Position numbers and translations under genes: made by a program. Positions 1 to 18,130 of a stretch of DNA of 64,000 bases are shown here, one piece after another. The stretch comes from an uncultured Planctomycetales bacterium (GTDB taxonomy: Bacteria > Omnitrophota > Gorgyraeia > Gygaellales > Profunditerraquicolaceae), in NCBI GenBank assembly GCA_964579435.1, contig CAZOGI010000011.1:18655-82654 (forward strand). Reading direction: 5' to 3'. Numbering within the stretch: the stretch's first letter is position 1; each line of letters begins with the position of its first letter. The notes beneath the pieces are model-generated. The model was given only the letters and a program-made list of their open reading frames with translations, did not search any database and was not told the DNA's origin.

Positions 1-428
1 CGACCTTTTCGGCGAATCCCCTGGGAACGGCGATCGGCCTGGAGACCATGCGGCTCATCGAGTCGTCCGATTTCGCCAATGAGATCCCGCGCAAAGGCTC
101 GTACCTGGTCTCGCGGTTCAAGCAGTTGCGCAAAAAGTATCCGCAGATCGGGCATGTCGACGGGCTGGGGTTGGCCGTGCGCATCGAGATGTGCCAGCGT
201 GACGGCTTTACCCCGGACAAAGAGCTGACCGATGCGATCGCCGCGCTCGGCCTCAGCGGCACCCTGACTGCCGGCGGCGGAAAAAAACGCGGGTTGATAC
301 TGGATGTGGGAGGCTACTACAAGAACGTCTTTACCCTGGCACCCAGTTTCTATATTTCCAAGCGGGAGATCGATCTGGGAGTCGATCTTTTCGAGGAAGC
401 CTTGACCCGCGCACTCGCCGGCCAGTAA
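1..428 (+). CDS. Class-III (omega) aminotransferase, C-terminal part; 5' end lies outside the window
   Basis: The frame is open from nt 3. The translation ...NPLGTAIGLETMRLIE...GGYYKNVFTLAPSFYISKREID matches the C-terminal small domain of class-III PLP aminotransferases. Confidence 0.7.
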   Translation, partial: TFSANPLGTAIGLETMRLIESSDFANEIPRKGSYLVSRFKQLRKKYPQIGHVDGLGLAVRIEMCQRDGFTPDKELTDAIAALGLSGTLTAGGGKKRGLILDVGGYYKNVFTLAPSFYISKREIDLGVDLFEEALTRALAGQ

Positions 429-470
429 CCGCTCCCGTTATCCGCACCCGCGTGCTGCAGATCGGCAATT

Positions 471-1682
471 ATGGATACACGCATAGTCATTACCGGTGTC
501 GGCCTGGTGAGTTCCCTGGGGACCGGCAGGGAGTGTTTTTTCGAAGCGCTCTTTGCGGGCGCCGACGGGACAGGGCCGGTACAGCTTTTCGATACGGCCT
601 CCTTGCCGGTGAAGCTGGCCGCGCCGGTGAAGGATTTCTCTGCCGAACAGATACTGGGCGCTCAGGGTCTGCGCACGCTTGACCGCAGTACCCGATTGCT
701 CCTTGCCGCCGGGAAGCTGGCGCTGCAGGATGCCGGATTGGCCGAAGGAGCCGTTGTTCCCGAAGCATTGGGGGTGGCGACCGGATCGACCCTGGGCAGC
801 CTCAAGAGCATCTGCGGATTCGATATCGAATCGCTGCGCGAGGGGCCGCGCTACGTCAATCCCGCGCTCTTTCCCAATACGGTTTTGAACTCTTCCTCGA
901 GCCAGCTCTCGATCCGCTGCAATGCCCGGGCGTTCAACGTGACCATGTCGCAGGGCGCCTGCAGCGGCCTGGCGGCGCTGCGTTATGCCGCGCAGGCGCT
1001 TCTGGCCGGGCGGGCGCGGGTGGTGCTTGCCGGCGGGGTCGAAGAGCTGTGCGAAGAGGCTTTTATGGGCATGCTCTCGGCCGGGATCCTCTCCGGAAGC
1101 CGGCCGGGGAGCGAGACGCTTTCCTGTCCCTTTGACCGCAGGCGTAACGGCCTTGTCGCCGGTGAAGGGGCCTGCGTGCTGGTGGTGGAAACACTGCGCG
1201 ATGCCCGGCGGCGCAACGCCGTTATTCTCGGGGAGTGTTGCGGTTGGGGCGAGGGTTTCGGCAGGAGCGACGGATTGCAAAGGTCGATGACCGAGGCGAT
1301 GCGCTCGGCGCACTGCCGGGGTGAGGATCTGGCCTACCTTTCGGCATCGGCTGTTTCCCTTCCTGATCAGGATGCCCGGGAGGCCCGGGCAATCAGACAA
1401 ACCTTCGGGGCCGACGCCGGCGGGCTGCCGGTCAGCGCGCTCGCTTCGCAGATCGGTTCTTGTTACAGCGCTGCGGGATCGTTTCAGGCCGTTTCGGCGC
1501 TCGGGGCGTTGCAAGCGGACCGTATTCCGGCGACGATACACACCGATCTGCCGGATGAAACGCTGGGGATCGACGTGGTTACGCAGCCGCGCGGCGGCTC
1601 GGGAAAAGAGTACGTATTGGTCAATGCCGTTGACGCGACCGCGGCCTCGGCCAGCCTGGTTCTGCGGCGTTATTGCGGGTGA
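471..1682 (+). CDS. Beta-ketoacyl synthase paralog (CLF-like). It retains the Cys region (GACSG) but lacks both catalytic His residues
   Basis: 403 aa with a thiolase/KAS fold (VITGVGLVS, VLAGGVEE, GEGACVLVVE). The positions of the HGTGT and GHxxGAAG motifs read SASAVS and GSCYSAAG. Confidence 0.8.
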   Translation: MDTRIVITGVGLVSSLGTGRECFFEALFAGADGTGPVQLFDTASLPVKLAAPVKDFSAEQILGAQGLRTLDRSTRLLLAAGKLALQDAGLAEGAVVPEALGVATGSTLGSLKSICGFDIESLREGPRYVNPALFPNTVLNSSSSQLSIRCNARAFNVTMSQGACSGLAALRYAAQALLAGRARVVLAGGVEELCEEAFMGMLSAGILSGSRPGSETLSCPFDRRRNGLVAGEGACVLVVETLRDARRRNAVILGECCGWGEGFGRSDGLQRSMTEAMRSAHCRGEDLAYLSASAVSLPDQDAREARAIRQTFGADAGGLPVSALASQIGSCYSAAGSFQAVSALGALQADRIPATIHTDLPDETLGIDVVTQPRGGSGKEYVLVNAVDATAASASLVLRRYCG

Positions 1683-1686
1683 TGCG

Positions 1687-2436
1687 ATGTCCTTGAAAGA
1701 CAAGCGGGCACTGGTCACGGGAGGCTCCCGGGGAATCGGGCGCGCCATATGCTCGATGCTCCTGCGGGAAGGGGCGCGGGTTGTTTTTACCTACCACTGC
1801 GCGCAGGAGGCGGCGCGCGCCTTGCAGGAGGAAGCCGCCGGCCGGGGCGCAGTGTGTCTGCCGCTGCGGGCGGACGTGCGGGATTTCGAAGGATCGCGCG
1901 GCGCGGTCGAAGAGGCAAAACGGCTTCTCGGCGGGCTGGATATCCTCGTCAATAACGCCGGCATAACCGCGGATAAGGCGTTGATGATGATGTCCCGGCA
2001 GGACTGGGAGGCGGTCGTGGAGACCAACCTCGGCGGGGTGTTCAACATGACCCGCAACGCGATCGTCGCCTTTCTGAAGCAGAAGGGCGGCTCGATCGTC
2101 AATATCACTTCGGTCAGCGGCATGGTGGGATTGCCTCGCCAGACGAATTACGCCGCCGCTAAGGCCGGGATCATCGGCTTCACCAAGGCGCTCGCCCGGG
2201 AGGTCGCCGCCTACGGCATCCGCGTCAACGCGGTTGCCCCCGGATTCATCGAGACGGACATGGTCGCCGGGCTCGCCCCGCAGCTGCGCGAACGCATGCT
2301 GGCGCGGATTCCGGCAGGGCGTTTCGGGTCAGCCGATGACGTAGCGTATGCGGTCCGGTTCCTCCTCGGGGAGGAGGCCGCGTTCATAACCGGTCAGGTG
2401 CTGGTCAGCGACGGCGGATTGTCTTTGGCATTGTAG
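1687..2436 (+). CDS. 3-oxoacyl-ACP reductase-like short-chain dehydrogenase (FabG paralog)
   Basis: Glycine-rich motif TGGSRGIGRA, NNAG, and YAAAKAG Tyr/Lys catalytic motif. The ATG at 1687 lies in the long ORF frame and follows the upstream stop at 1682. Confidence 0.85.
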   Translation: MSLKDKRALVTGGSRGIGRAICSMLLREGARVVFTYHCAQEAARALQEEAAGRGAVCLPLRADVRDFEGSRGAVEEAKRLLGGLDILVNNAGITADKALMMMSRQDWEAVVETNLGGVFNMTRNAIVAFLKQKGGSIVNITSVSGMVGLPRQTNYAAAKAGIIGFTKALAREVAAYGIRVNAVAPGFIETDMVAGLAPQLRERMLARIPAGRFGSADDVAYAVRFLLGEEAAFITGQVLVSDGGLSLAL

Positions 2437-2451
2437 AAACAAGGAGAGGAT

Positions 2452-2709
2452 ATGGCGGATCTTGCGCACGAGCTTAAACAGGTGATTGCCGAAATCATCG
2501 AGAAAGACCCCGGACTCATCGCGGATGATGCGCGTTTCGCCGAGGATCTGGGGGTTGATTCCATGATGGCCCTTGAGATACTCGCGGCGATCGAGAAGAA
2601 ATACAAAATCCAGATCCCCGAAGACAAACTGATGGAGATGTCCACCTTCAGTAAGACCCTGGCGATCGCCCGGGAGTATCTGGAGAAAAAACAGAATGCC
2701 TCCGCTTGA
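2452..2709 (+). CDS. Dedicated acyl carrier protein
   Basis: 85 aa with the LGVDSMMALE phosphopantetheine-attachment Ser motif. AGGAGAGG ribosome-binding site (RBS) upstream. Confidence 0.85.
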   Translation: MADLAHELKQVIAEIIEKDPGLIADDARFAEDLGVDSMMALEILAAIEKKYKIQIPEDKLMEMSTFSKTLAIAREYLEKKQNASA

Positions 2710-3136
2710 AGCCGCAGACCTGAAGAGAATCCTGCCCCAGCGGTATCCTTTCCTGATGATCGACCGGGTGGTGGAGTGTGAGCCCCTGAAGCGGGTCGTT
2801 GCCCTCAAGAATGTCTCTTACACCGAGGCGTTCTTTGCCGGGCATTTTCCGGGTACGTCCGTTTTTCCCGGGGTGCTGCTGGTGGAGGCAATGGCCCAGG
2901 CTTCGATCGTCCTGGTCGCATCGGCCCGCGCGGATGCGCCTGAGCGCGGGACGTTTTATCTGGGGGCGGTCAAGGCGCGGTTCCTGCGGCCGGTGGTGCC
3001 GGGGGACCAGGTGCGTATAGTGGTAGAGCCGGAGAAGCTGGTGAGCGGCAAGGGAATCGTCAAGGCCCAGGCGTTTGTGGGTGATGCCGAAGTGGCGGGC
3101 GCACAGATCACCTTCGGGTTTACCAAGGAGGCATGA
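2696..3136 (+). CDS. FabZ-like 3-hydroxyacyl-ACP dehydratase
   Basis: RYPFLMIDRV...HFPGTSVFPGVLLVEAMAQA hot-dog motifs. Overlaps the ACP stop by 14 nt. Confidence 0.85.
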   Translation: MPPLEAADLKRILPQRYPFLMIDRVVECEPLKRVVALKNVSYTEAFFAGHFPGTSVFPGVLLVEAMAQASIVLVASARADAPERGTFYLGAVKARFLRPVVPGDQVRIVVEPEKLVSGKGIVKAQAFVGDAEVAGAQITFGFTKEA

Positions 3137-3625
3137 ATGAAGCGCGCAGAAATGAGTACCTCGGGTTTCCCCCGGGCGTTCAGAGGGGCAGGTCTTTTGC
3201 TGTGCGTGATCGCACTTGTTGTTTCGTGCGCGCACGCGCAAACGGCATCGACGAACGAATTACAGGAAGGTCGCTACGTCCTGGTCATGATGAAGGGCCG
3301 CGCGATCTCCAACACGCGGGTGCCGACGATGATCCTGGACAGTTACCAGGGGATCGTCTGGACCTGCCAGAACCTGCAGGACAGCAATCCCCTGTGGGTG
3401 AAGGTTGATCTTGCCCGTAACGCCGGCACCATCGGCCGCAAGCGCTACGTCGCACGCATGCTCGAGTGGCAGGATGCGGATCTGCGCATGCCGGGTATCG
3501 TTTTGGATGTGGAAGAGGGGATCATCTGGACCTGTCCCAACATCATCGACGGCAAGGCGGTCTGGATACGCAAGGATCTTCGTAAAGAAACCGGCGAACA
3601 GGCCGGTGACGGCGGCAATGAGTAG
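3137..3625 (+). CDS. Lipoprotein or secreted protein with internal tandem duplication, unknown function
   Basis: Signal peptide with lipobox-like VVSC. Two repeats (QGIVWTCQNL...PLWVKVDL and EGIIWTCPNI...AVWIRKDL). The start abuts the FabZ-like stop. Confidence 0.6.
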   Translation: MKRAEMSTSGFPRAFRGAGLLLCVIALVVSCAHAQTASTNELQEGRYVLVMMKGRAISNTRVPTMILDSYQGIVWTCQNLQDSNPLWVKVDLARNAGTIGRKRYVARMLEWQDADLRMPGIVLDVEEGIIWTCPNIIDGKAVWIRKDLRKETGEQAGDGGNE

Positions 3626-3791
3626 GATCTCGATTCTTTCGTTGTGCATGGTACTGCTCGCCTGCGGGTGCGCCCCGCGCATGAAGTATCACCGCGACGC
3701 CGAAGGTCTGCTGCAAAATTCCTGCCGCAGCGGTGAGGGTGTCAATACGCAGGATCTGCAGAAAGAGCCCAAGGATCTGACGCAGCGATGA
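3618..3791 (+). CDS. Small lipoprotein (57 aa), unknown function
   Basis: MSRISILSLCMVLLACGC signal with LLAC lipobox. Overlaps the upstream stop. Its stop overlaps the KS start (ATGA at 3788). Confidence 0.45.
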   Translation: MSRISILSLCMVLLACGCAPRMKYHRDAEGLLQNSCRSGEGVNTQDLQKEPKDLTQR

Positions 3792-4993
3792 AGAGGCGCG
3801 TCGTCATTACCGGGTTGGGGGTGGTTTCGGCGATCGGCAGCGGGGCCTTGCCTTTCTGGGAGGCGCTTATCAACGGGACCAGCGGCATCGGGGAGATAAC
3901 CGCTTTCGACACGACGGGTTACCCGACGCACCGGGGAGGGCAGATCAAGGGGTTTGATCCCCGGCAGTACCTGAGCGTACGTTGCGTCTCCCGGATGGGG
4001 AGGGCTTCGCACCTGGCGGTTTCCGCGGCGCAGCAGGCTTTTGTCGACGCCGAACTTGCCCAGCCGCTGCGGCGCACCGCGGGCTTGTGTTTCGGCAGCA
4101 CGATGGGGGAATCCGCGGTCCTGCAGGAGCTGGATGAGGCATGGCTTGCCGCAGGGTTCGCCGGGCTGGACCCGGCGAAGGTGAGGCAGTGTCCCGTCAG
4201 CACGATCGCCGCGCACTGCATGGCCGAATGCCGGCTGCGGGGGCCGGTGCGGGTCATAACCAACGCCTGCGCGGCCGGTAATTTCGCGCTCGGGGCGGCG
4301 TTCGACCTGATCCGCAGCGGCGAGGCCGAGGTGATGCTGGCAGGGGGGGCGGATGCGTTTTCGCGCATCGCCTTTACCGGGTTCAACCGGATGCTGGCGG
4401 TTGCGCCGCAGAAATGTCAGCCTTTTGACAAGAACCGCAAAGGCATGATGGTCGCGGAGGGCGCGGCGTTTTTCGTCCTTGAGTCGCAGGCGCACGCCGC
4501 GGCACGGGGTAAGCGCGCCTACGCCGAGGTCCTGGGATACGGCATCAGCTGCGACGCGCATCATATGAGCGCTCCGCACCACCGCGGCATCGCTGCCGCC
4601 CTGCAGGGAGCGCTCGATGCGGCGGGGATAACCTGCGGCGACGTCGATTATATCAGCGCGCACGGGACCGGCACGCCGGCGAATGACCGCGAGGAGTGCC
4701 TGGCGCTGCGCAGCGTTTTCGCAGATTCCTCCCGTCGCATACCGGTCAGTTCGATCAAATCAATGCTCGGCCACACGATGGGCGCGGCTTCGGCGATCGA
4801 AACGGTCGCCTGTTGCATGGCGATCGCGCACGGCGTGGTGCCCCCGACGGTCAATTTCGAGACGCCGGACCCGGACTGTGACATCGACTGCGTCCCCAAT
4901 GTCGCGCGCCGAATGCGCGTGCGGGTTGCGCTCAATACCGCCTCGGCTTTCGGCGGCAACAACGCCTGCGTCGCCCTGGCGGAGGCCGCCTGA
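3788..4993 (+). CDS. Beta-ketoacyl-ACP synthase (FabF/FabB-like KS) with an intact Cys-His-His triad
   Basis: ITNACAAG (Cys), SAHGTGTP (His) and SMLGHTMGAAS (His). 401 aa. Confidence 0.9.
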   Translation: MKRRVVITGLGVVSAIGSGALPFWEALINGTSGIGEITAFDTTGYPTHRGGQIKGFDPRQYLSVRCVSRMGRASHLAVSAAQQAFVDAELAQPLRRTAGLCFGSTMGESAVLQELDEAWLAAGFAGLDPAKVRQCPVSTIAAHCMAECRLRGPVRVITNACAAGNFALGAAFDLIRSGEAEVMLAGGADAFSRIAFTGFNRMLAVAPQKCQPFDKNRKGMMVAEGAAFFVLESQAHAAARGKRAYAEVLGYGISCDAHHMSAPHHRGIAAALQGALDAAGITCGDVDYISAHGTGTPANDREECLALRSVFADSSRRIPVSSIKSMLGHTMGAASAIETVACCMAIAHGVVPPTVNFETPDPDCDIDCVPNVARRMRVRVALNTASAFGGNNACVALAEAA

Positions 4994-5841
4994 TGCAGGC
5001 TCCTGAGCTGCGCCCCCACGGTTTTTTCCATAAAGGTTCCTCCACCGGGATACTCCTCATCCACGGGATAACCGGTGCCCCGGCCGAAATGCAGTTCCTC
5101 GGCCGCAAGCTCAACGGTGCAGGGTTTTCCGTTCTCTGCAACAGCCTCCCCGGCCATTGCGCGGGCCTGCAGGCGCTGCAGGCGGTCACCTGGCAGGAGA
5201 TCGCCGCTGCCTGCGCAGAGGATCTGCGGCAGCTGCGTTCGTGTTGCGAGACGGTTTTTGTCTGCGGGCTCTCGGCCGGAGCGCTCCTGTCTTTGTATCT
5301 GGCCGCGCAGCAGGCAGAGGCGGTCCGCGGGATCGTTGCGCTTGCCCCCACTTTTTTTTATGACGGCTGGGCGGTGCACAAGGGCAGGGCGGTGCTTGAG
5401 CTGCTTTGGCATATCCCGTTCGTGCGCAAAAGGGTGCTCATTCCCGAAAGCCATCCCTTCGGCCTTAAAGATGAGACGCTGCGCAGCATCATCGAGCGGC
5501 TGTACCGGCTGCAGCGGCACGATACGAAGGCCAAACAGTCAGCCGAGGCGCTTTCTTTCGGCAGCCCGTTCTTTCCCGCTGCCTGCCTCTATCAGCACGC
5601 GCGTTTCGTGAAGGTCGTCAGGCCGCTCCTGCCGACGGTCAAGGCGCCGCTTTTGATCCTGCATGCGCGCGAGGACGACATGGTCAGCCTCAAGAACGCC
5701 GAATATTGCCTGCGCAGCTGCGGCAGCGCGGACAAAAAGCTCATCGTCCTTACGAACAGTTACCATATGATCACTATCGATCAGGAAAAAGAGGCGGTCG
5801 CGCAGGAGGTTGTCGCATTCCTGAGCCGGCTGGCGGCGTGA
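4993..5841 (+). CDS. Alpha/beta-hydrolase fold esterase or thioesterase
   Basis: GLSAG nucleophile elbow, LLIHGITG oxyanion region, C-terminal His. 1-nt TGATG overlap with the KS stop. Confidence 0.75.
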   Translation: MQAPELRPHGFFHKGSSTGILLIHGITGAPAEMQFLGRKLNGAGFSVLCNSLPGHCAGLQALQAVTWQEIAAACAEDLRQLRSCCETVFVCGLSAGALLSLYLAAQQAEAVRGIVALAPTFFYDGWAVHKGRAVLELLWHIPFVRKRVLIPESHPFGLKDETLRSIIERLYRLQRHDTKAKQSAEALSFGSPFFPAACLYQHARFVKVVRPLLPTVKAPLLILHAREDDMVSLKNAEYCLRSCGSADKKLIVLTNSYHMITIDQEKEAVAQEVVAFLSRLAA

Positions 5842-7358
5842 AGAGCGGTTACGACGCGATCGTCGTCGGCGCCGGGATCGGCGGGCTTTTCGCGGCCTTG
5901 GAGCTTTCCACCAAGGGAAAGCGCGTCCTGCTCCTGGAGGCGCAGCCGGTGCCCGGCGGGTTCGCGACGCAGTTCAGGCGCCGCGGGTTCACCTTCGAAT
6001 CGTCGCTGCACTGCGTCGACGGCCTCGGCAAGGACCAGCCGATACGCATGTACCTGCAGATGAACGCGTTCGTGGCCGGGATCTCTTTCCTGCCCCTGAA
6101 GGAATTCGCGCGCATCAGCTATCCCCAGCACGATTTCCTCATCGACGCGGACGTACAGGGCTACAAGAAATACCTCCTCGCCCAGTTTCCGGGAGACAAG
6201 AGCGGGATCGAGCGGCTCTTTTTGTTCTACGAGCGGTTCTACCGCGAGTTCGACGCCTTTGAGGAATCGAGCCTCCCCGAAGCCATGCGCATGCTGCTGT
6301 GCCCGTTTCTCTTCCGCACGATCCTGAAGACCTCGCTGATGAGCGTCGAGCGGCTCCTGAACGGGTTCGTGCGTTCCCCGCAGCTGAAGGCGATCCTCGC
6401 CGACCATTGGCGTTTTCTCGGCTTGCCGCCGAGCGAGCTCTCGGCTTTCTATTTCCTCGTGGCGCTGCGCGGCTATTATTTCGAGAAGACCGCGTATGTC
6501 CGGGGCGGGTATCCGCAACTGGTGCGCGCGATCGTGGAGACGCTGCGCACGCGGGGGGCGGAAATCCTGTTTAAGACGACCGTCAACGCCATCCTGACCG
6601 ACGGCCGCCGGCGGGTGCGGGGTGTGCGCACCGGCGACGGCACGGAGTATCTGGCGCCGGTAGTCGTCTCCAACGTCAATGTCCCCGATACCGTCAGCGT
6701 GCTCCTGGACGACGCCCGCCTGCGCGCGACGCTGGGCAGCAGGGTCAACGGCATGGAAAAGAGCGTCTCCATCTTCCAGGTGTATCTGGGGCTCAACCGG
6801 CCGGCAAAGGATCTGGGGATGAGCTGCCCGCTGCGTTTCATCAACCCTTCCTACGATCACGAGGCGTCTTTTGCCGCAAGCGTGCGCGGCGATTACGCGC
6901 ATGCTCCCCTGGGGCTGGTCGATCACGCCCAGGTCGACGCGACGCTGGTGCCCGAAGGCAAGGGGAGTCTCATCATCATGGTCTACGATTCGTTCCGCAA
7001 CTGGCAGAGCGCCAGCATCGACCGGGCGGAATACGAGCGTAAAAAAGAGGCCGTCTGCGCTCAGTTGATCGCGCGCGCGCAAGCGCACCTGCCGGGCCTG
7101 GCGGCGGCAATCGAGGTCAGGGAGGCGGCAACTCCCCTGACGATGCAGCGCTACACGCATGCCCCGGAAGGCGCCGTGTACGGGTTTGCCCAGACGATCG
7201 CACAATCGTCGGTCAACCGTTTCCCGCAGAAGCTTGCGGTCTCGGGGCTTTTTTTGGCCGGGGCATGGACTTTCCCCGGCGCGGGGATGCACGGCTGTTT
7301 CCATTCGGGGCTGGAGGCGGCATCCCTGGCGTTGCGCTATCTTTCTCGAGCCCGATAG
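5838..7358 (+). CDS. FAD-dependent oxidoreductase of the phytoene desaturase (CrtI/CrtD) family
   Basis: GTG start overlapping the upstream TGA. YDAIVVGAGIGGL Rossmann dinucleotide-binding motif and an amine-oxidase-like C-terminus. Confidence 0.75.
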   Translation: MKSGYDAIVVGAGIGGLFAALELSTKGKRVLLLEAQPVPGGFATQFRRRGFTFESSLHCVDGLGKDQPIRMYLQMNAFVAGISFLPLKEFARISYPQHDFLIDADVQGYKKYLLAQFPGDKSGIERLFLFYERFYREFDAFEESSLPEAMRMLLCPFLFRTILKTSLMSVERLLNGFVRSPQLKAILADHWRFLGLPPSELSAFYFLVALRGYYFEKTAYVRGGYPQLVRAIVETLRTRGAEILFKTTVNAILTDGRRRVRGVRTGDGTEYLAPVVVSNVNVPDTVSVLLDDARLRATLGSRVNGMEKSVSIFQVYLGLNRPAKDLGMSCPLRFINPSYDHEASFAASVRGDYAHAPLGLVDHAQVDATLVPEGKGSLIIMVYDSFRNWQSASIDRAEYERKKEAVCAQLIARAQAHLPGLAAAIEVREAATPLTMQRYTHAPEGAVYGFAQTIAQSSVNRFPQKLAVSGLFLAGAWTFPGAGMHGCFHSGLEAASLALRYLSRAR

Positions 7359-7369: not shown

Positions 7370-7399
7370 TTGACATAACCCGTTACAATCATTTATAGT
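7370..7399 (+). promoter_or_regulatory. Sigma70-like promoter TTGACA-18-TATAGT upstream of the PagL-like gene
   Basis: TTGACA at 7370-7375 and TATAGT at 7394-7399. A perfect AGGAGG RBS lies upstream of the ATG at 7460. Confidence 0.5.
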
Positions 7400-7459: not shown

Positions 7460-8065
7460 ATGAGGAACGGTCTTGCCTTTTTTCTGGCGTTGCTGTTAGG
7501 GATTAGCGCGTCATCTGCGGTCAGCGCCGCCGAGGATGCCTCCTGCGGCAACGGTTTCCTTAAGAATATCCAGGCGGTCGAATGCCTGGTGGGGTTTAGC
7601 ACGGGAAAGCTGCGGGAGCAGCGTGATTACCGGATGATCCCCTTGATGTTCGCCCTCGATTTCAATTTCAAGGAACTGCTGGAGAATAAGACAAAATTCA
7701 AATATTACGGCCTGCTCCAGTTCCAGATCGAGCCGTATATCTCGACGGTTTACCAGCCCGATCCCAACGTCGAGCTCGGCAACGGCTTTGTCCTGAAACT
7801 GGGCTTGTTGCCGGAGCGTTTCGCGTTCCAGCCGTACGTCAAGGGCGGGGCGGGGATGTCTTTTATGTCGCAGCACACCCGCGAGCAGTCGACGGGCTTC
7901 AATTTCTACGAGTATGTCGCCTTGGGCGGGCACTATTTCCTGAAAAAATCGCTTGCTGTTACGGTCGAGTACCGTTTCCGTCATCTCTCGAACGCCGGCA
8001 TCGACCATCCGAATAAGGGTATCGAGAGCCATTTCGGCATGGTGGGAGTCCTTTATTCTTTCTAG
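7460..8065 (+). CDS. pagL: Outer-membrane lipid A 3-O-deacylase (PagL family)
   Basis: Signal peptide. Beta-barrel ending in aromatic F. RFRHLSNAG matches the PagL His/Ser catalytic motif HxSNx. Confidence 0.7.
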   Translation: MRNGLAFFLALLLGISASSAVSAAEDASCGNGFLKNIQAVECLVGFSTGKLREQRDYRMIPLMFALDFNFKELLENKTKFKYYGLLQFQIEPYISTVYQPDPNVELGNGFVLKLGLLPERFAFQPYVKGGAGMSFMSQHTREQSTGFNFYEYVALGGHYFLKKSLAVTVEYRFRHLSNAGIDHPNKGIESHFGMVGVLYSF

Positions 8066-8069
8066 CTTC

Positions 8070-8546
8070 CTGACGCACGGCAGACTGCTTTCGCGGTGGT
8101 TTCTTTTCTTTTCCCCGGGCCTCTTTGCGGCGGCTCTGGTCGGGGCGCGTCCTCTTGCGGTTGAGGCGGCTTCATACGCCGTGGAGGCGCAGGCAATCCC
8201 TTCCGAGGTCGCCTACGGGGATACCTTCCTGTATACCGTCAGCGTTTCTTCTTCCGAAAAAGAGTTTCCTGTCCCTACGTTCCCGCCGCTGGAAGCGTTT
8301 ACCGTGCTCTCGCAGGTGCAGTCGCTTTTTGAGTATCCGGCGCGCCCGTTGCGCTACGTCCAGCTATTTCTGATCAGGCTGCGGCCGAAATATTACGGGC
8401 CGGTGACGATCGAACCGTGCCTTTTGCGCGTCGGGGAAGAAACCTTCCAGAGCCAGCAGCTCATCGTGACCGTCAGGGGGCATGATCCGGCGCAGGAACT
8501 GCAGCGTTCATTTTTCGAACAGGAAGAGGGGCGTTTGCGAAAATGA
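8070..8546 (+). CDS. Secreted protein, weak BatD-like N-terminal domain; start codon uncertain
   Basis: Signal peptide LLSRWFLFFSPGLFAAALVGARPLAVEA. There is no in-frame ATG, GTG or TTG after the PagL-like stop, so a CTG or ATT start is implied. Confidence 0.35.
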   Translation: MTHGRLLSRWFLFFSPGLFAAALVGARPLAVEAASYAVEAQAIPSEVAYGDTFLYTVSVSSSEKEFPVPTFPPLEAFTVLSQVQSLFEYPARPLRYVQLFLIRLRPKYYGPVTIEPCLLRVGEETFQSQQLIVTVRGHDPAQELQRSFFEQEEGRLRK

Positions 8547-10645
8547 ATCCGCCGGCGCGCATCGATGATCAGGTGCGATTTCTTAAGGGTATCGGCCCGC
8601 AGCGCTCGCTCGCGCTGCAGAAGGCCGGGATCGAGACGGTTGAGGACCTCCTGTATTATTTACCGCGCCGCTACGAAGACCGCCGCAGCTTCACCCCGAT
8701 CTCCCGGCTTTGTCCGGATCAGGAGCAGACCGTGCGCGCCAGCGTCCTGGCGGCAGGGCAGCGTCGCTCGCGGCGGCGTGCGAATTTTTCGATCCTGGAG
8801 GTGGCGGTCGGCGACGAGTCTGGCAAGGTCAGCTGCGTGTGGTTCAACCAGCCGTACCTGAAAGCATATTTTAAGGTGGGACGAAGCCTGATCCTGCACG
8901 GCAAGCTCGAGCGCTACGGCAGCCGGCTTCAATTCACGGCGCCCGAATTCGAGTTCGACGATGGGGCTGAGGCCGATTCGCTCAACGTCGGCAGGATCGT
9001 TCCTGTTTATCGCCTCATGGGGGCGATCGGTCAGCGCAGCTTGCGCCGGGTCATGAAGCAGGCGGCCGAACGGTACGCGCATCTGCTTCCGGAGATCCTC
9101 GATCTTTCCCTGCGGCAGCGGCTCGATCTGATCAACCGGACCCAAGCGGTCCTGCAGATCCATTTTCCCGATACCCCCGAGCTGCAGCAACAGGCATACC
9201 GCCGGCTTTCGTTCGAGGAGTTTTTCCTGTTTCAGATCCCCCTGGCGATCCGCAAAATTCGCAAGAAAAAAACCGCGGGGATCAGCCACCGGCCTGCCGG
9301 GGCGCTCTCCCGGGATTTCCTGAAGAAACTTCCCTTTGCATTGACCGCTTCCCAGCAGAAGGTCGTTGCCGAGATCACGCAGGACCTTGCCGCTCCTTAT
9401 CCGATGCAGCGGCTTTTGCAGGGTGATGTCGGCTCAGGAAAGACCGTCTGTTCGACCCTGGCGGCATTGATGGTGCTGGAAGGCGGCTATCAGGTCGCGT
9501 TCATGGTGCCGACGGAGGTCCTGGCGCAGCAGCATTACAGCCGGATACTCGGGCAGCTGGGTGAATTGGGCGCGGAGCACGCGGCGCTCTGCAGGATGGG
9601 ACTTTTGACCAGCGGCCTGGAGCGCGCACCCAAAGAGCGGCTCTTGGGCTCGATCGCCGAAGGAAAAATCCGGCTGGTCATCGGCACCCACGCGCTCCTG
9701 CAGGAATCGGTCAAATTCAGGAACCTGGGGCTCGTTATTATCGACGAGCAGCATAAATTCGGCGTCGGTCAGCGCGCGCTCCTTCCTGCCAAAGGCAATA
9801 ATCCCGATGTCCTGATCATGACCGCCACCCCGATCCCCCGGACGCTGGCGATAACCCTCTACGGTGATCTGGATGTTTCGGTGATCACCGAGATGCCCGC
9901 GGGCCGTCAACCGATCGCCACGCGCAGCTTCAGTTTCGAGCAGGAGCCTTTCGTCTACGCATCGCTCCTTGCCCAGGTGCGCGCGGGGCGGCAGGCCTTC
10001 GTAGTACTGCCGGTCATCGAGGATTCCGAGGCGCTTGCCCTGGCCGGCGCCAAACGGCGCTTCGAGGAATTGAAAGCCGGATCGCTTCGGGGGCTGCGTC
10101 TGGGGCTGCTGCACGGTCAGCTCGCCTCAGCCCAGCAGGCTCAGCTTATCGAGCGCTTCAAGGGCGGCGATATCGACGTTCTCGTGGCCACGACCATACT
10201 GGAGGTCGGCATCGATATTCCCCGTGCCACCTGCATCGTTATCGAGCATGCGGACCGTTTCGGCCTGGCGCAATTGCATCAGCTGCGCGGACGGGTCGGC
10301 AGGGGGGACGCCGCTTCCGAATGTCTCCTCGTGAGCGACGCCCAAACCCCTCAGGCCCAGGCGCGCCTGCAGGCATTGGTCAATTCCTGCGACGGGTTCC
10401 GTATCGCCGAAGAGGATCTGCGTATCAGGGGGCCGGGTGAGTTTTTCGGCAGCCGCCAGCACGGGGTCGTGCCGATGCGCATCGGCGATCCCCTGACCCA
10501 GATGCGCCTGTTGAAAGCGGCGCGCGAAGAAGCGCTGCGCCTGGTGGGGGCTGATCCGCTCCTGTCGGTTGCGGCGCACGCCGGCATCAGGCGTCTTCTC
10601 CTGCGCCGTTTCCCGGAATACGAAAAGACACTTTCCATCGGATGA
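8543..10645 (+). CDS. recG: ATP-dependent DNA helicase RecG
   Basis: Wedge domain, GDVGSGKT Walker A, DEQHKFGV. 700 aa. Confidence 0.95.
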   Translation: MNPPARIDDQVRFLKGIGPQRSLALQKAGIETVEDLLYYLPRRYEDRRSFTPISRLCPDQEQTVRASVLAAGQRRSRRRANFSILEVAVGDESGKVSCVWFNQPYLKAYFKVGRSLILHGKLERYGSRLQFTAPEFEFDDGAEADSLNVGRIVPVYRLMGAIGQRSLRRVMKQAAERYAHLLPEILDLSLRQRLDLINRTQAVLQIHFPDTPELQQQAYRRLSFEEFFLFQIPLAIRKIRKKKTAGISHRPAGALSRDFLKKLPFALTASQQKVVAEITQDLAAPYPMQRLLQGDVGSGKTVCSTLAALMVLEGGYQVAFMVPTEVLAQQHYSRILGQLGELGAEHAALCRMGLLTSGLERAPKERLLGSIAEGKIRLVIGTHALLQESVKFRNLGLVIIDEQHKFGVGQRALLPAKGNNPDVLIMTATPIPRTLAITLYGDLDVSVITEMPAGRQPIATRSFSFEQEPFVYASLLAQVRAGRQAFVVLPVIEDSEALALAGAKRRFEELKAGSLRGLRLGLLHGQLASAQQAQLIERFKGGDIDVLVATTILEVGIDIPRATCIVIEHADRFGLAQLHQLRGRVGRGDAASECLLVSDAQTPQAQARLQALVNSCDGFRIAEEDLRIRGPGEFFGSRQHGVVPMRIGDPLTQMRLLKAAREEALRLVGADPLLSVAAHAGIRRLLLRRFPEYEKTLSIG

Positions 10646-12231
10646 AGCCCTTCCTGTCCCTGAGCGTCCTGTTTTGGCTTCTTGCCGCGGCGGCGAATCC
10701 GTTCTGGGCCGGGTGGGCGTTTTTCACCGACGGGAAAATCGATTCCCCGCGGGGCTTGGCGCTGGTGCTCGCCGTTCAGGCGCTTTTGGGCGGGGCGGGT
10801 TTATTCTGGCTCCGGAGATCGGTTCCCGAAGGAGCGCGCGCGGCGGCCGCGCGGGCAACCTGGATCGTTTTTACCGCTGCCTTTTTCTTCGCTGCCGGCG
10901 GACTGGAGGTGCTCTTGTCCGACCGGTTTTCGTCTGCCGCAGAGATCCGCCCCGCAGGGTGCCTCGTTGCGGTTCTTGCCCTGTGTGTCGCGGTGAGTAC
11001 TGCGCTGTGTTTGCGCCTCGGCAAAAAAAAAGCCTTTTTCACCGGGGCGGCGTCAGTCCTTTTCGGCTGTACGGCTCTCATTCTGGCCGATGTTCTTGTT
11101 TCGTTCTTTGTTCCGCCCTGGCCGGCGCGGGTCCTGCACGGGCTTAAGCCGCGCGATGTCCCGCGGGTCTGGGGGTACCGCACCTTCGAGCAGTATAATA
11201 CCGATTTCAATTCCTGGGGGCAGCGCGACCGGGAACGCAGTGTCGTCCCCGGCTCAGGGGCGTACCGGATCGTCCTGATAGGGGATTCATTTCTCGAGCA
11301 GGGAGCTCGCCGGTCCTTAAGCGTGGCGCTGGAGCGCCAGGTGCACGACAAGGGGATAGAATTCGTCAATCTGGGCGTCTCGGCGACCGGCCCCGACGAT
11401 TACTATTACCGGCTCAAAGAGGTTGCGCTGCGGCTGCAACCGAAGGAATGCTGGGTGTTTTTGTTCTGCGGCAACGATTTTTCGTTAAGCGATCCAACCC
11501 TGCCGAATTCTTTCCTCGGCATCGTCTCGGTTGCGCCGCGCGGTTCTTTCCTGCAGGCGCTGCGGTTGCCACACCTGAATTTCCTTTTGGCTCCCCGGTC
11601 CCGGCGTTTCGATGAGATATTCGGCGCCCGCAGCCTTTTTGCTTCAGAGAAAAGGTTTTTCGATCGCCTCAGGAGCGCTCCTGACGAAGAAATGCCCGAG
11701 CTCTTGTCTGCGGTGCGCCCGGCGCAGGAACGGCCGCATCTTCTTGAGCGGTTGCGCGCGCGCGATCTGTCCCCGTTGTATCAGGCGCTGCGTTCCCCGC
11801 GCCCACAGATGTTGCGTTCCGATCTCCTGAACCGGATATTGGCATCTTGGGGGATGGGGCATGAGCGCGTCAGATCAGAAGACGTAGAGCGCGCCATCGC
11901 CTATCTGGCGGGGATGCGGGAGACGTGTCGCCGGGCCGGGGTCTCTTTGAAGATCGTGCTCATTCCCGATCCGTTGGTAGATAAGCGGGTGCAGCGTCTC
12001 TGGAAGCCGCTTTCAAACGGCGTGGATGTTTTCAGCGGCCAGCGAAACGCATGCCGTCAGGTGAAAAGCTGGTGCCGCGGCAGCGCGGGCTGTTCCGTCG
12101 TGGATCTGGAACCGGTCCTGGCCGGACGCTACGGCATGTACGGCACGTTCGATCCCCACTGGAGCGATCGCGGGATCGATACGGTCGCCCATTTTCTCGC
12201 GTCAGGGGTAGCGCGAAAGGAGCGGCGGTGA
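10642..12231 (+). CDS. Membrane-anchored SGNH/GDSL-family hydrolase
   Basis: Four to five N-terminal TM helices, then the IVLIGDSF, GNDF and DPHWSD SGNH blocks. ATGA overlap with recG. Confidence 0.6.
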   Translation: MKPFLSLSVLFWLLAAAANPFWAGWAFFTDGKIDSPRGLALVLAVQALLGGAGLFWLRRSVPEGARAAAARATWIVFTAAFFFAAGGLEVLLSDRFSSAAEIRPAGCLVAVLALCVAVSTALCLRLGKKKAFFTGAASVLFGCTALILADVLVSFFVPPWPARVLHGLKPRDVPRVWGYRTFEQYNTDFNSWGQRDRERSVVPGSGAYRIVLIGDSFLEQGARRSLSVALERQVHDKGIEFVNLGVSATGPDDYYYRLKEVALRLQPKECWVFLFCGNDFSLSDPTLPNSFLGIVSVAPRGSFLQALRLPHLNFLLAPRSRRFDEIFGARSLFASEKRFFDRLRSAPDEEMPELLSAVRPAQERPHLLERLRARDLSPLYQALRSPRPQMLRSDLLNRILASWGMGHERVRSEDVERAIAYLAGMRETCRRAGVSLKIVLIPDPLVDKRVQRLWKPLSNGVDVFSGQRNACRQVKSWCRGSAGCSVVDLEPVLAGRYGMYGTFDPHWSDRGIDTVAHFLASGVARKERR

Positions 12232-14083: not shown

Positions 14084-15091
14084 ATGAAGATCGTGGTCGA
14101 TGCGATGGGGGGGGATCATGCCCCGGAGGTCGTCATTGAAGGCGCGATCGCCGCGGTGAAGGAGTATGATCTGGAGGTCGTCCTTGTCGGCGATGCCGAA
14201 GGGGTGCACGAGCTCCTGCGCCGGCACCGGTGCACGGACCGGCGCATCAGCGTTCATCCGGCGCTTGAGGTCATCGGGATGGGAGAGCCTGCAGCCGCCA
14301 GCGTGCGCAAGAAGCGGCGTTCTTCGATCGTGGTGGGGGTCAGCCTGGTGAAGGCGGGGGAAGGGCAGGCGTTTGTCTCTGCCGGCAATACCGGGGCGGT
14401 CGTGTGTGCCGCGACCCTGGGGCTGGGCCTTCTGCCGGGCGTCGAGCGGCCGGGGATCGCGGTCGTTGCCCCCTCGTTGGACGGTATCTCCCTGATCATG
14501 GACGTCGGCGCCAACATCGATCCCAAGCCGATGCAGCTGTTGCAGTACGGCATCATGGCCGACGCCTACTGCCGCACTATCCTGGGAAAGCCTTCTCCTT
14601 CGGTAGCACTCCTGAATATCGGTGAGGAGGAGAAGAAAGGCACGGAGTTCCTCAAGGAGACGTATGAGTTACTCGAGAAAAGCGGGCTTAATTTCATCGG
14701 TAACGTCGAAGGCAAGGATCTTTTTTCCGGGAAGAGCGATATCATCCTCTGTGACGGTTTCGTCGGCAACGTCGCCCTGAAGGTCTCCGAGAGCGCGGCC
14801 GAGGCGATGCAGACCTTTTTGAAGCGGCACCTGTTGGGGCATTTCCTGGGCCGCATCGGGATCCTCTTCATGCTTCCCAGCCTCAAACGGTTCAAGAAAG
14901 AGCTCGATTATTCGGAGTACGGCGGCGCGCCCCTTTTGGGCGTCAACGGCGTCGTGATCATCAGCCACGGCCGCTCCAACGCCAAGGCGATCAAGAACGC
15001 CATCCGCGTCGCCAAGGAAGAGGTTGAGCGTAAATTCAACGAGAGTATTATCGAGGCGGTTTCCCGCACGCCGGGAGCGCATGCCTCATGA
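14084..15091 (+). CDS. plsX: Phosphate acyltransferase PlsX
   Basis: MKIVVDAMGGDHAP... sequence with full-length similarity. Confidence 0.95.
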   Translation: MKIVVDAMGGDHAPEVVIEGAIAAVKEYDLEVVLVGDAEGVHELLRRHRCTDRRISVHPALEVIGMGEPAAASVRKKRRSSIVVGVSLVKAGEGQAFVSAGNTGAVVCAATLGLGLLPGVERPGIAVVAPSLDGISLIMDVGANIDPKPMQLLQYGIMADAYCRTILGKPSPSVALLNIGEEEKKGTEFLKETYELLEKSGLNFIGNVEGKDLFSGKSDIILCDGFVGNVALKVSESAAEAMQTFLKRHLLGHFLGRIGILFMLPSLKRFKKELDYSEYGGAPLLGVNGVVIISHGRSNAKAIKNAIRVAKEEVERKFNESIIEAVSRTPGAHAS

Positions 15092-16065
15092 AAAAGGTCG
15101 GTATTGTCGGAGTCGGCGAGTATCTGCCGAAGCGGGTCTTGACCAACGCGGACCTGGAGAAGATGGTCGATACGTCCGATGAATGGATCACGACCCGCAC
15201 CGGCATCAAGCAGCGGCGCCTGGCGGCGGCCGGCGAGGCGGCTTCCGACCTGGCGGTGAAAGCCGCTCAGGACGCGCTGGCCGATGCCGACATCGCTGCC
15301 GGGTCGCTCGATCTGATCATCGTCGCCACGATCACCGGGGATATGCCGTTTCCCTCGAGCGCCTGTCTGGTGCAGCAGGCGCTGGGTGCGGAAAAGGCCG
15401 TTGCCTTCGACGTCGCGGCGGCCTGCGCCGGGTTCGTCTATGCCCTGACCGTCGCTCAGCAGTTCATCGCCACGGGGTGTTTCAAGAACGCACTGGTGAT
15501 CGGCACCGAGGTTCTGTCTTCGATCACCGATTGGCAGGACCGCAATACCTGCGTCTTGTTCGGTGATGGGGCAGGGGCGGCGGTTCTGGCGGCGGTTGAG
15601 TCGGGGGGGATCCGGTCTTCCTACCTGGGCAGCGACGGCAGGCTCAGCGATCTTTTGATGGTCCCTGCCGGGGGCTCGCGCTTGCCCGCCAGTGCCCAGA
15701 CGGTCCAGGAGCGGCAGCATTATATCAAGATGCGCGGCAACGAGCTTTTCAAGGTGGCGGTCAATGCCATGGCAGAAGCTGCGCAGGCTGCCGTGCGCAG
15801 GGCGAAACTGGAGTGCGCGGACATAGATCTGGTTATCCCGCATCAGGCGAATATCCGCATCATCATGGCCGTGGCCAAGAAGCTGGGCCTGGCTCCCGAA
15901 AAGATCTATCTGAATATCGAACGTTACGGCAATATCTCTTCGGCTTCAACCGCCACCGCGTTATGCGAAGCGGTCCGCGAGGGCAGGGTCAAGAAGGGCG
16001 ACAACGTCCTGCTCGTGGCCTTCGGCGCCGGGCTTGTCTGGGGAGCGTGCGTCATCCAATGGTAA
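15088..16065 (+). CDS. fabH: 3-oxoacyl-ACP synthase III
   Basis: ATGA overlap with plsX. AACAGF active-site Cys, and His/Asn motifs. Confidence 0.95.
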   Translation: MKKVGIVGVGEYLPKRVLTNADLEKMVDTSDEWITTRTGIKQRRLAAAGEAASDLAVKAAQDALADADIAAGSLDLIIVATITGDMPFPSSACLVQQALGAEKAVAFDVAAACAGFVYALTVAQQFIATGCFKNALVIGTEVLSSITDWQDRNTCVLFGDGAGAAVLAAVESGGIRSSYLGSDGRLSDLLMVPAGGSRLPASAQTVQERQHYIKMRGNELFKVAVNAMAEAAQAAVRRAKLECADIDLVIPHQANIRIIMAVAKKLGLAPEKIYLNIERYGNISSASTATALCEAVREGRVKKGDNVLLVAFGAGLVWGACVIQW

Positions 16066-17009: not shown

Positions 17010-17749
17010 GATTGAAAGATACCGTTGCCCTGGTGACCGGATCGGCCCAGGGGATCGGCCGGGAGATCGCCTTGGCCTTTGCGCGCGAAGGGTCGGATAT
17101 CGTCATTACCGACATTAATCTGGAGAAGGCGCAGAGTACCAGCGGGGAGATCGAGGCTTTGGGGCGGCGTTCGCTTGCGCTTCAGATGAATGTCGCTCTG
17201 CCGCAAAGCGTTGACGAATGCCTCAACAAAATTCTTGACAAATGGGGAAAGGTTGATATATTAGTTAACAATGCGGGCATCACCCGGGACGGTTTGCTGC
17301 TGCGCATGAGCGAGGCAGACTGGGATGCGGTGGTGGACGTCAACCTCAAGGGGACGTTCAACTGCACCAAAGCGGTTTCCAAGGTGATGATCAAGCAGCG
17401 AAGCGGCCGTATCATCAACATCGCTTCGATCATCGGCGTGATCGGCAACGCGGGGCAGGCGAATTACTCAGCCTCAAAAGCCGGAATCATCGCTCTTACC
17501 AAAACAGCGGCAAAAGAACTCGCCAGCCGCGCTATTACGGTGAACGCCGTTGCCCCGGGGTTCATCCAGACCGACATGACTGCCAGGCTCTCCGATGAGC
17601 TGAAACAGAAGATGCTGGCAAGCATTCCGATGAACAAGCTGGGCACGCCTGCGGATGTCGCGGGCGCATGTCTTTTCTTTGCCGGTCCCGAGGCAGCATA
17701 TATAACCGGACAGACCCTCATAGTAGACGGCGGAATGGTTATGGTATAG
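17006..17749 (+). CDS. fabG: 3-oxoacyl-ACP reductase
   Basis: TGSAQGIGREIA, NNAGITRD, YSASKAG. Confidence 0.95.
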   Translation: MRLKDTVALVTGSAQGIGREIALAFAREGSDIVITDINLEKAQSTSGEIEALGRRSLALQMNVALPQSVDECLNKILDKWGKVDILVNNAGITRDGLLLRMSEADWDAVVDVNLKGTFNCTKAVSKVMIKQRSGRIINIASIIGVIGNAGQANYSASKAGIIALTKTAAKELASRAITVNAVAPGFIQTDMTARLSDELKQKMLASIPMNKLGTPADVAGACLFFAGPEAAYITGQTLIVDGGMVMV

Positions 17750-17792
17750 GGCCGGTCGCCGCAAGCCAAACGTAACATAAAGGAGGAACAGA

Positions 17793-18096: not shown

Positions 18097-18130
18097 AGTG
18101 GCTCGGATGCAGGAGGTTGACCGTACGACT

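Follow-up and report, generated by a model that had tools for sequence, protein, structure and literature searches.

We analysed a stretch of 64,000 nucleotides, referred to here as the window, from contig CAZOGI010000011.1 of assembly GCA_964579435.1 (positions 18,655 to 82,654 of the forward strand). It was deposited as an uncultured Planctomycetales bacterium and is assigned to the Omnitrophota in GTDB; the window is all the genome sequence in view for statements about the host genome. Its left edge (positions 471-7358) is occupied by a cassette of genes resembling those of the type II system for making fatty acids (FAS II), whose proteins are, we are confident, very probably homologous to those of the anammox gene cluster known as Cluster I. 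The interpretation we favour, as likely though far from certain, is that the cassette is the Omnitrophota counterpart of the fatty-acid-synthase-like core of Cluster I, forming a self-contained chain-building module that depends on an acyl carrier protein (ACP) and stands beside FAS II. It is a variant of a known, functionally unsolved kind and is not categorically new.

Cluster I (KustE3603-3608) comprises amxACP, amxFabZ, amxFabF2, amxFabFmut, a phytoene-dehydrogenase homologue (PDH) and a B12 radical S-adenosylmethionine (radical-SAM) enzyme (Rattray 2009, PMC2649909; Dietl 2023, PMC10139942; Granatino et al. 2026, bioRxiv 10.64898/2026.05.19.726425); of the candidates for ladderane biosynthesis it is the leading one (PMC10139942; bioRxiv 10.64898/2026.05.19.726425). 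The papers on Cluster I and on ladderane biosynthetic gene clusters describe ladderanes from anammox bacteria only. The Barends laboratory characterised Cluster I as unique to, or exclusively encountered in, ladderane producers (bioRxiv 10.64898/2026.05.19.726425; PMC10139942), and loosely similar clusters were noted in some deltaproteobacteria (Rattray et al., PMC2649909). The proteins amxFabF2 and amxFabFmut act only as a heterodimer of a ketosynthase (KS) with a chain-length factor (CLF), which decarboxylates malonyl-amxACP (bioRxiv 10.64898/2026.05.19.726425; PMC10139942) and crosslinks C8 probes faster than C16 probes (bioRxiv 10.64898/2026.05.19.726425). The dehydratase amxFabZ prefers C6-C8 substrates and is active only on amxACP (PMC10139942; bioRxiv 10.64898/2026.05.19.726425).

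The cassette consists of the following open reading frames (ORFs):

471-1682, plus strand: KS-like partner without catalytic triad, CLF-like, amxFabFmut family (Pfam ketoacyl-synt N- and C-terminal domains)
1687-2436, plus strand: FabG-like 3-ketoacyl-ACP reductase (KR; adh_short_C2, 220 bits)
2452-2709, plus strand: ACP of the amxACP type (PP-binding domain)
2696-3136, plus strand: FabZ-like 3-hydroxyacyl-ACP dehydratase (DH) of the amxFabZ type (FabA-like domain)
3137-3625, plus strand: small secreted protein ('lipoprotein 1') with a signal peptide and two internal repeats
3618-3791, plus strand: small ORF of 57 aa with an N-terminal hydrophobic, Cys-containing signal; partner of the 3137-3625 ORF
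3788-4993, plus strand: intact KS, amxFabF2 family (Cys-His-His and Lys kept)
4993-5841, plus strand: alpha/beta-hydrolase of lipase/esterase type (Hydrolase_4, Abhydrolase_6)
5838-7358, plus strand: CrtI/CrtISO-family FAD oxidoreductase ('PDH-A'; Amino_oxidase, NAD_binding_8)

The nine plus-strand ORFs of 471-7358 follow one another at spacings of -14 to +15 nt throughout, which indicates a single operon. The KR starts with the ATG at 1687 rather than 1690, and the 57-aa ORF overlaps its two neighbours by 8 and 4 nt. Active-site motifs are predicted for the KS (the triad), the KR (Ser-Tyr-Lys), the DH (His/Glu), the ACP (Ser), the hydrolase (GLSAG) and the flavoprotein (GxGxxG). Neither an enoyl reductase (ER) nor an acyltransferase gene is present in the operon. 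The GC content is uniform along the window, the remainder of which is devoted to core metabolism, including leucine, arginine and lysine biosynthesis, uvrA and type IV pilus genes.

Both KS proteins find their closest solved structures in the anammox heterodimer. The intact KS matches amxFabF2 best in the PDB (9s5h_B, 426 bits, E 2e-126), followed by Iga11 (6kxd_A, 333 bits) and FabF (294 bits). It is 45-50% identical to anammox amxFabF2, retains Cys165/His298/His335 and Lys, and has Met337, Asn389 and Phe394 in common with amxFabF2. The top match of the KS-like protein is amxFabFmut (9s5h_C, 306 bits, E 4e-90), compared with 192 bits for the best FabF and just 139 bits for the Act CLF (1tqy_B), and its identity to anammox FabFmut is 39-41%, or 37-42% in the comparison of all four families. 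In the alignment it has Ala in the catalytic Cys column and Ser in both His columns, and it has lost the Lys. A Cys lies one position off, in 'GACSG'; the catalytic position has Phe as its family consensus. The triad is lost across the family, with His2 changed to Glu or Asp. An earlier reading of this DNA made without database searches (hereafter the sequence-only reading) had paired the KS with a 'His-less' partner; the pair stands, but the loss covers the whole Cys-His-His triad and the Lys, not the His alone. Residues Phe135, Thr138 and Val139, which tune chain length in the anammox heterodimer (bioRxiv 10.64898/2026.05.19.726425), are invariant across all 28 anammox and Omnitrophota KS-like sequences compared. 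An intact KS and a paralogue with a mutated triad are therefore encoded in the same cluster, as in an amxFabF2/amxFabFmut-type pair. Judged by sequence, KS and KS-like are orthologous to amxFabF2 and amxFabFmut, and the KS-like protein derives from the FabF/amxFabFmut lineage.

Trees point in the same direction. The sequence-only reading had proposed a phylogeny of the two KS proteins against FabF/FabB and aryl-polyene enzymes; the part of it carried out here, by neighbour-joining (NJ) on a modest sample rooted on one outgroup (the window's FabF), groups both proteins with anammox amxFabF2/amxFabFmut. KS and KS-like form two clades, and within each of them the anammox sequences and the Omnitrophota sequences, the window protein among the latter, stand as reciprocally monophyletic sisters. 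In a bootstrap of 100, the anammox clades received 100 and 100 and the Omnitrophota clades 93 and 99 for KS and KS-like, respectively. It follows that the duplication into KS and KS-like is older than the separation of the two lineages' versions.

The top three PDB matches of the cassette ACP (7qv0_D, 7auf_A and 9s5i_E) are all anammox-specific ACPs, to which it is related at 45-48% identity for amxACP. Its helix-II motif DSMMALEILAAIEKKYKIQIPE resembles that of amxACP, DSLLALEILALIEKKFKVQIPE, and is unlike the acidic helix II of AcpP. Top matches and motif together mark it as a predicted amxACP-type carrier, although it is without the two-residue insert of amxACP. The DH likewise matches amxFabZ entries best (7qv0_A, 8ayb and 8ayi, 122-126 bits; best canonical FabZ 109) and is 43-52% identical to anammox amxFabZ. 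Positions 69, 96 and 115 are diagnostic of amxFabZ, canonical FabZ having Gly at 69 and Lys/Arg at 96 and 115 (PMC10139942). The window DH, in which the catalytic His and Glu are present, has Ile at position 69 ('AQASIVL', compared to canonical 'AQATGIL'), Val at 115 and, at 96, a Leu that is non-basic but not the Ser/Thr of amxFabZ; it carries the amxFabZ signature of Ile69, a hydrophobic 115 and a non-basic 96. The E. coli FabZ and AcpP sequences in the DH and ACP alignments served as visual guides only.

Relatives of the cassette are widespread in one phylum. Homologues of the flavoprotein and the KS-like protein number in the hundreds at 40-53% identity, and nearly all those with an organism name are Candidatus Omnitrophica/Omnitrophota. 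Scanning one genome for each GTDB species by pattern, we found a KS-like relative encoded in 381 species genomes. The best 65 of the 381 are Brocadiia, 62-94% identical to amxFabFmut (one of them binned as Thermodesulfobacteriota); below these the identity drops to 51% or less, and the remaining matches listed are Omnitrophota, a few of them labelled 'uncultured Planctomycetales'. The contig binned as 'uncultured Thermodesulfobacteriota' (L042, CAXMPV010000082.1) carries a complete Scalindua-like Cluster I, with a FabFmut 65% identical to the Brocadia protein, and is probably a mis-binned anammox contig. A metagenome scan with the window KS-like protein found no close relative, and one with the PDH-A alignment returned, among the matches listed, just CrtI-family proteins at 33% identity or less, its patterns being too generic.

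The Omnitrophota cassettes (compared loci carry L numbers) fall into three architectures:

Type 1 (the window, L001/L002, L084 and L085; also L068 and L069 up to the ends of their contigs): KS-like, KR, ACP, DH, KS, hydrolase, flavoprotein
Type 2 (L083, 10001-17652; L082, 9956-18144; L076, 9932-17330): KS-like, KR, ACP, KS, DH, nitroreductase-like protein, other flavoprotein
Type 3 (eleven loci: L066, L067, L070, L072, L073, L075 and L077-L081): KS-like, KR and DH only; KS-like at about 10001-11230 in most

The KR directly follows the KS-like gene in 23 of the 24 Omnitrophota loci examined. Type 1 cassettes lie beside recG, and rsmD-coaD-yceD-rpmF-plsX-fabH is found within the examined flank in three of the five other genomes; the same seven-gene order in independent genomes (L001/L002, L084, L085) indicates that the arrangement is not due to chance. 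Type 2 cassettes have further genes, namely a fatty-acyl reductase (NAD_binding_4) in L082 and L076 and a PEMT/ICMT-type methyltransferase in L083, and their 3' neighbour is a seven-transmembrane histidine kinase in L083 and L076 and a seven-transmembrane sensor-domain ORF, cut by the end of the locus, in L082. By its PDH, type 2 is closer than type 1 to anammox Cluster I in sequence. Type 3 loci are located between riboflavin genes/nusB and ligA; partner KS, ACP and flavoprotein were not found within 10 kb of them, and amxFabZ position 69 is Cys or Ala in their DH.

The hydrolase and the CrtI-like gene are always paired in the complete type 1 loci (L001, L002, L084 and L085), in agreement with the sequence-only reading, which had counted both among the members of the cassette. 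The best PDB matches of the hydrolase are LipS, a bacterial monoacylglycerol lipase and carboxylesterase Est30, and we regard it as a putative release step. This role is supported by the type 2 loci L082 and L076, where a fatty-acyl reductase is present in place of an alpha/beta-hydrolase. The flavoprotein scores 173 bits on the CrtI-family model (TIGR02734 crtI_fam) and 158 bits on the carotenoid-isomerase model, both below cut-off, and its top PDB match is CrtI (4dgk, 105 bits). It has about 95 homologues at 40-53% identity, all but one of those with an organism name being from Omnitrophota.

The cassette is distinct from the housekeeping FAS II genes of the same window. As the sequence-only reading had stated, a full plsX-fabH-fabD-fabG-acpP-fabF cluster lies at 14084-19375, and all six of its genes score above the curated NCBIfam cut-offs. 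The cassette KS stays below the TIGR03150 fabF cut-off (395 vs 494 bits), as do the KS-like protein (256 vs 494), the KR on TIGR01830 (286 vs 297.75) and the ACP (50 vs 70) below theirs; the DH is above the NF000582 FabZ cut-off (141 vs 113) and below that of TIGR01750 (135 vs 155). The KS-like protein is 27% identical to the window's own FabF, the cassette KR 46.5% to the housekeeping FabG (17006-17749) and the cassette ACP 30% to the window's AcpP. These comparisons bear out the earlier claim of a second, dedicated ACP-dependent KS/CLF-type cassette beside the housekeeping set, and the PP-binding, adh_short_C2 and FabA-like domains confirm that it has its own ACP, ketoreductase and FabZ-like dehydratase. 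The sequence-only reading had named the finding that would undo it, namely that these genes are the organism's only fabZ, fabB and fabG copies. For fabG, acpP and fabF this is not the case; for fabZ, no second FabZ-like gene was found in the 64-kb window.

The DH brings up the possibility that the cassette serves primary fatty-acid synthesis, as the only FabZ or as the source of a short acyl-ACP such as octanoyl-ACP, with the KS/CLF pair as an alternative initiation module. Several observations are in line with this. The cassette is conserved across the phylum and adjoins recG and rsmD-coaD-yceD-rpmF-plsX-fabH, the 64 kb are without another FabZ-like gene, and the DH passes one FabZ model (NF000582); type 3 Omnitrophota, whose DH has a small residue at position 69, retain KS-like, KR and DH amid rib/nusB/ligA genes, and the anammox heterodimer starts synthesis by decarboxylating malonyl-ACP. 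However, a complete FabH/FabD/FabG/AcpP/FabF set is already there, and the window DH has the amxFabZ Ile69 and non-basic ACP-docking positions. In assays in vitro, amxFabZ showed hardly any turnover of C10-C12 substrates and no activity on canonical ACP, and ordinary fatty-acid synthesis has no use for a private ACP, an esterase or a CrtI-family enzyme. We consider a housekeeping function of this kind improbable for the window cassette.

The likeness to Cluster I extends beyond best matches. The ACP, DH, KS and triad-less KS belong to orthologous families, all four matching Cluster I proteins best among solved structures and having diagnostic residues in common with them; in both systems a CrtI-family flavoprotein stands at the 3' side, and ER and acyltransferase genes are absent. 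There are also clear differences. The anammox order is ACP, DH, KS, KS-like, PDH and radical SAM, whereas the cassette begins with the KS-like gene, adds its own KR and alpha/beta-hydrolase, contains a flavoprotein of another subclade and has no B12 radical-SAM gene. Its ACP differs by the missing insert noted above, and its host belongs to the Omnitrophota, which are not known to produce ladderanes.

The Brocadia radical-SAM enzyme (L004 12672-14159) had no tblastn match in the 64 kb at E<=1e-3, and an anammox-type B12 radical-SAM gene does not adjoin any of about 20 Omnitrophota cassettes, including L001, L084 and L085. Other Omnitrophota loci yielded just generic radical-SAM matches at 21-24% identity in tblastn. 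One of these, in L068, is a generic B12 radical-SAM gene of 24% identity; it lies on the strand opposite to the cassette, about 4.5 kb upstream of it, with unrelated genes in between. The absence of the enzyme argues that the product is not a ladderane. In a side observation, a dihydrolipoamide-dehydrogenase-like Pyr_redox_2 flavoprotein follows the Brocadia radical-SAM gene (L004 14355-15785), and a 30%-identical copy is found upstream of the type 2 cassette of L076 (6684-8000). No flavoprotein of this kind was found in the window, and its occurrence in L076 may be a coincidence.

Taken as the counterpart of the Cluster I core, the cassette could operate as follows, although we put forward the mechanistic details tentatively and expect that some of them are wrong. 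The housekeeping FabD would load malonate onto the private ACP, and the KS/CLF pair would prime by decarboxylation and then elongate, with KR and DH processing every round. The conserved CLF tunnel residues and Ile69 of the DH may bias the system towards chains of short or medium length (for the anammox enzymes, about C6-C8). As the cassette has no ER, the intermediates would be enoyl- or conjugated polyenoyl-ACPs, as in highly reducing type II polyketide synthases (PKS) of the ishigamide type. The flavoprotein might isomerise, saturate or desaturate a C=C bond, a role suggested by a carotenoid-isomerase score close to its CrtI-family score, and the hydrolase would release or transfer the acyl group. 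The product is probably an unsaturated acyl chain for a cell lipid, different from a ladderane. No assigned product was found for the cassette, in keeping with the sequence-only reading, which could not name a pathway for it.

Several points weigh against the cassette being a functional counterpart of the Cluster I core. The KS-like protein of the window diverges unusually far. In comparisons with B. fulgida amxFabFmut, the identity is 41% for the window protein and 46-50% for Omnitrophota members; the distance of Omnitrophota members from the window protein is about as large as that of the B. fulgida protein. The flavoprotein is 28-31% identical to anammox PDH and falls in a separate NJ clade; the PDH-A clade contains Omnitrophota only, and anammox PDH groups with the type 2 PDHs of L082, L076 and L083. 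The window flavoprotein is therefore not an orthologue of the KustE3607-type PDH, and the role of the anammox PDH cannot be carried over to it. The heterodimer, the chain length and the product proposed for the Omnitrophota proteins are carried over by analogy from anammox biochemistry, and the short-chain preference of the anammox enzymes came, according to its authors, from non-physiological assays (bioRxiv 10.64898/2026.05.19.726425). Beyond the 64 kb, the genome could still encode an ER, a radical-SAM enzyme or a canonical FabZ. Finally, the type 3 loci, in keeping only KS-like, KR and DH among housekeeping genes, hint that the machinery partly serves primary fatty-acid synthesis.

The relationship to Cluster I leads us to speculate that the Omnitrophota cassette could be a sister, donor or ancestral form of the ladderane machinery, making a linear or unsaturated intermediate that anammox bacteria cyclise. 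We view this evolutionary scenario as unlikely, though worth stating. If it holds, nothing but the B12 radical-SAM enzyme and the amx-type flavoprotein would have been added specifically for ladderanes. Ladderane biosynthesis is unsolved, and the four FAS-like families of Cluster I have a large sister group in the Omnitrophota, which is a candidate sister or donor lineage and provides natural 'minus radical-SAM' operons with a built-in KR and release enzyme. Because it has its own KR and a hydrolytic release step, the cassette could offer, by expression, a tractable way into the ladderane pathway, of which no in vitro reconstitution has so far been achieved. With three Omnitrophota architectures, none of those examined accompanied by the radical-SAM gene, it is probably the radical-SAM enzyme and the amx-type PDH that are ladderane-specific, and the KS/CLF module is probably more general.

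Under the same evolutionary scenario, a major uncultured phylum would carry an undescribed lipid. The prediction for lipids is that, in many Omnitrophota, a core-genome operon next to plsX-fabH gives rise to an unrecognised acyl product. We found no report in the literature of gene-by-gene orthology, of the three Omnitrophota architectures or of the missing radical-SAM gene, and Omnitrophota are unmentioned in the Barends-laboratory Cluster I paper and in a 2025 study of the origins of anammox enzymes. Expressed antiSMASH 'ladderane' biosynthetic gene clusters of unassigned function are listed for nine phyla or lineages, the Omnitrophota being one of them (Geller-McGrath et al. 2023, PMC9902471), and cassettes like type 1 are probably what was flagged there. 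Those calls differ from the present comparison in that they apply a rule-based label over many phyla, with no gene-by-gene orthology, no separation from clusters of the aryl-polyene kind and no remark on the missing radical-SAM gene (PMC9902471).

The sequence-only reading had likened the cassette to aryl-polyene or type II PKS-like clusters, which would make it a pigment cluster of the aryl-polyene/flexirubin kind, with a KS/CLF pair building a polyene on an aromatic starter and lipoproteins taking part in export to the outer membrane. The general composition is indeed shared, in that a KS/CLF-like pair, an ACP, a KR and FabZ-like dehydratases build an unsaturated chain without an ER; precomputed Pfam annotations add ApeP-like and ApeI-like matches on DH homologues, and the flexirubin model FlxB scores 245 bits on the cassette KR. 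The comparison with family models that the sequence-only reading had suggested does not favour this view. The FlxB score is below the 340-bit cut-off, the housekeeping FabG scores the same 245 bits, and neither the cassette nor its surroundings contain an adenylation enzyme, an ammonia-lyase, a second ACP, an acyl- or glycosyltransferase, a LolA-like carrier or an MMPL exporter. On these grounds we reject an aryl-polyene or flexirubin assignment, which we rate as very unlikely. The cassette lacks starter-unit, transferase and export genes, and its KS-like protein descends from the FabF/amxFabFmut lineage, all four FAS-like proteins being nearest to anammox Cluster I. The small proteins form a movable module with a propeller-blade-like rather than LolA-like fold. 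Matches to NCBIfam models of cispentacin biosynthesis (AmcB/E/F) were also rejected, being below cut-off and no better than those of housekeeping genes.

A further parallel in composition is the ishigamide highly reducing type II PKS (Iga11/Iga12; PDB 6kxd-6kxf), which likewise combines a KS, an inactive partner, an ACP, a KR and a DH without an ER, and of which Iga11 is the second-best solved-structure match of the cassette KS, at 333 bits. The cassette differs from it in having a partner of the FabF/amxFabFmut type, not an Iga12/Act-type CLF, in lacking amide-forming or other tailoring genes, and in its core-genome site beside FAS genes.

Two further genes border the cassette:

3-428, plus strand: 3' end of a class-III aminotransferase (C-terminal 141 aa, cut by the window edge; Aminotran_3, 53 bits)
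7460-8065: PagL-family lipid A 3-O-deacylase (Pfam, 72.7 bits)

The PagL gene raises the question of an envelope product. Its adjacency had led the sequence-only reading to suggest an envelope lipid, and the cassette could in principle supply special acyl chains for lipid A in the manner of the rhizobial AcpXL/FabZXL/FabF1XL/FabF2XL proteins. In the rhizobial cluster, an LpxXL acyltransferase and an alcohol dehydrogenase lie beside acpXL-fabZXL-fabF2XL-fabF1XL. A dedicated ACP, a DH and two KS paralogues are common to both; PagL is directly downstream in the window, and genes of the DegT and EamA type lie between cassette and PagL in L001/L002. Yet no LpxXL-type or other lipid A acyltransferase domain is found in the operon or its neighbourhood, and the short-chain signatures of DH and CLF argue against a very-long-chain product. 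PagL does have, as the sequence-only reading had noted, its own strong promoter just downstream of the cassette, a near-consensus sigma-70-type TTGACA-18-TATAGT at 7370-7399 (11 of 12 matches). The gene is found downstream of the cassette in the window and in L001/L002 (there with other genes intervening) and is missing from the cassette flanks of L084 and L085. Since the proposal rests only on PagL adjacency, which is not conserved, a lipid A function has little to recommend it, and we judge it highly improbable. The intervening genes of L001/L002 (for a DegT-type aminotransferase and small proteins of the EamA type) may act in the modification of lipid A or sugars.

Least credible of all is a genuine pathway for a ladderane or another radical-SAM-cyclised lipid with its radical-SAM gene elsewhere in the genome: the cassette has orthologues of four of the six Cluster I families, an amxPDH-type flavoprotein is even present in type 2 cassettes and the nearest relative, L068, has a generic B12 radical-SAM gene 4.5 kb upstream of its cassette, but that gene is only 24% identical, on the opposite strand and set apart by unrelated genes, no anammox-type homologue occurs in the window or beside the roughly 20 Omnitrophota cassettes, and the papers on Cluster I and on ladderane gene clusters describe ladderanes from anammox bacteria alone.

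The aminotransferase, separated from the start of the cassette by a 42-nt gap, had been listed as a member of the pathway and is probably a neighbour instead. An orthologue is found near the cassette in only one of the five other type 1 genomes (L068, 73% identical), where a HAD phosphatase and an arginase-family gene flank it on either side. These two flanking genes, but no aminotransferase, occur in L001, and in L084 and L085 recG is upstream. Starter-unit enzymes, which might have been expected further upstream, are absent from the region upstream of the cassette in the nearest relative, L068, where the aminotransferase region gives way to unrelated genes.

The two small ORFs within the cassette have no counterpart in any other cassette compared. 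They form a two-gene module of a secreted protein of about 150 aa and an ORF of about 45-57 aa, which occurs at the following positions:

Window, 3137-3791
L086, 8001-8572
L087, 8001-8598

In L086 and L087 the 'lipoprotein 1' homologues lie away from any cassette and are followed by an ORF of 45-49 aa. Members of the 'lipoprotein 1' family are 42-70% identical to the window protein, and the few with an organism name are Omnitrophota. They have mostly ordinary signal-peptidase-I-type signals, two invariant Cys residues and two repeats, each with an invariant W-x-C motif; an AlphaFold2 model (pLDDT 80) appears to resemble two beta-propeller blades and is not LolA-like. The 57-aa ORF (3618-3791) matched no family in Pfam or NCBIfam searches. 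Of the 'two embedded lipoproteins' of the sequence-only reading, two secreted-type ORFs remain; the lipoprotein label does not suit most homologues of the first, and membership of the pathway is not supported; they are a lineage-specific insertion and not conserved members of the cassette. A role of the small proteins as lipid carriers or cassette members was rejected in view of the propeller-blade-like model and the location of the family elsewhere in other genomes.

Further along the window, PagL is followed by a BatD-like ORF (7953-8546) and then recG. Right after recG lies a 529-aa ORF (10642-12231) whose sole match is a weak AlgX/SGNH-like one of 23 bits, below cut-off. A run of envelope-related genes stands among housekeeping genes at 45741-50680 and encodes a GT4 glycosyltransferase, a DUF2079 membrane protein, a UbiA-family prenyltransferase and a GT9 heptosyltransferase-like protein.

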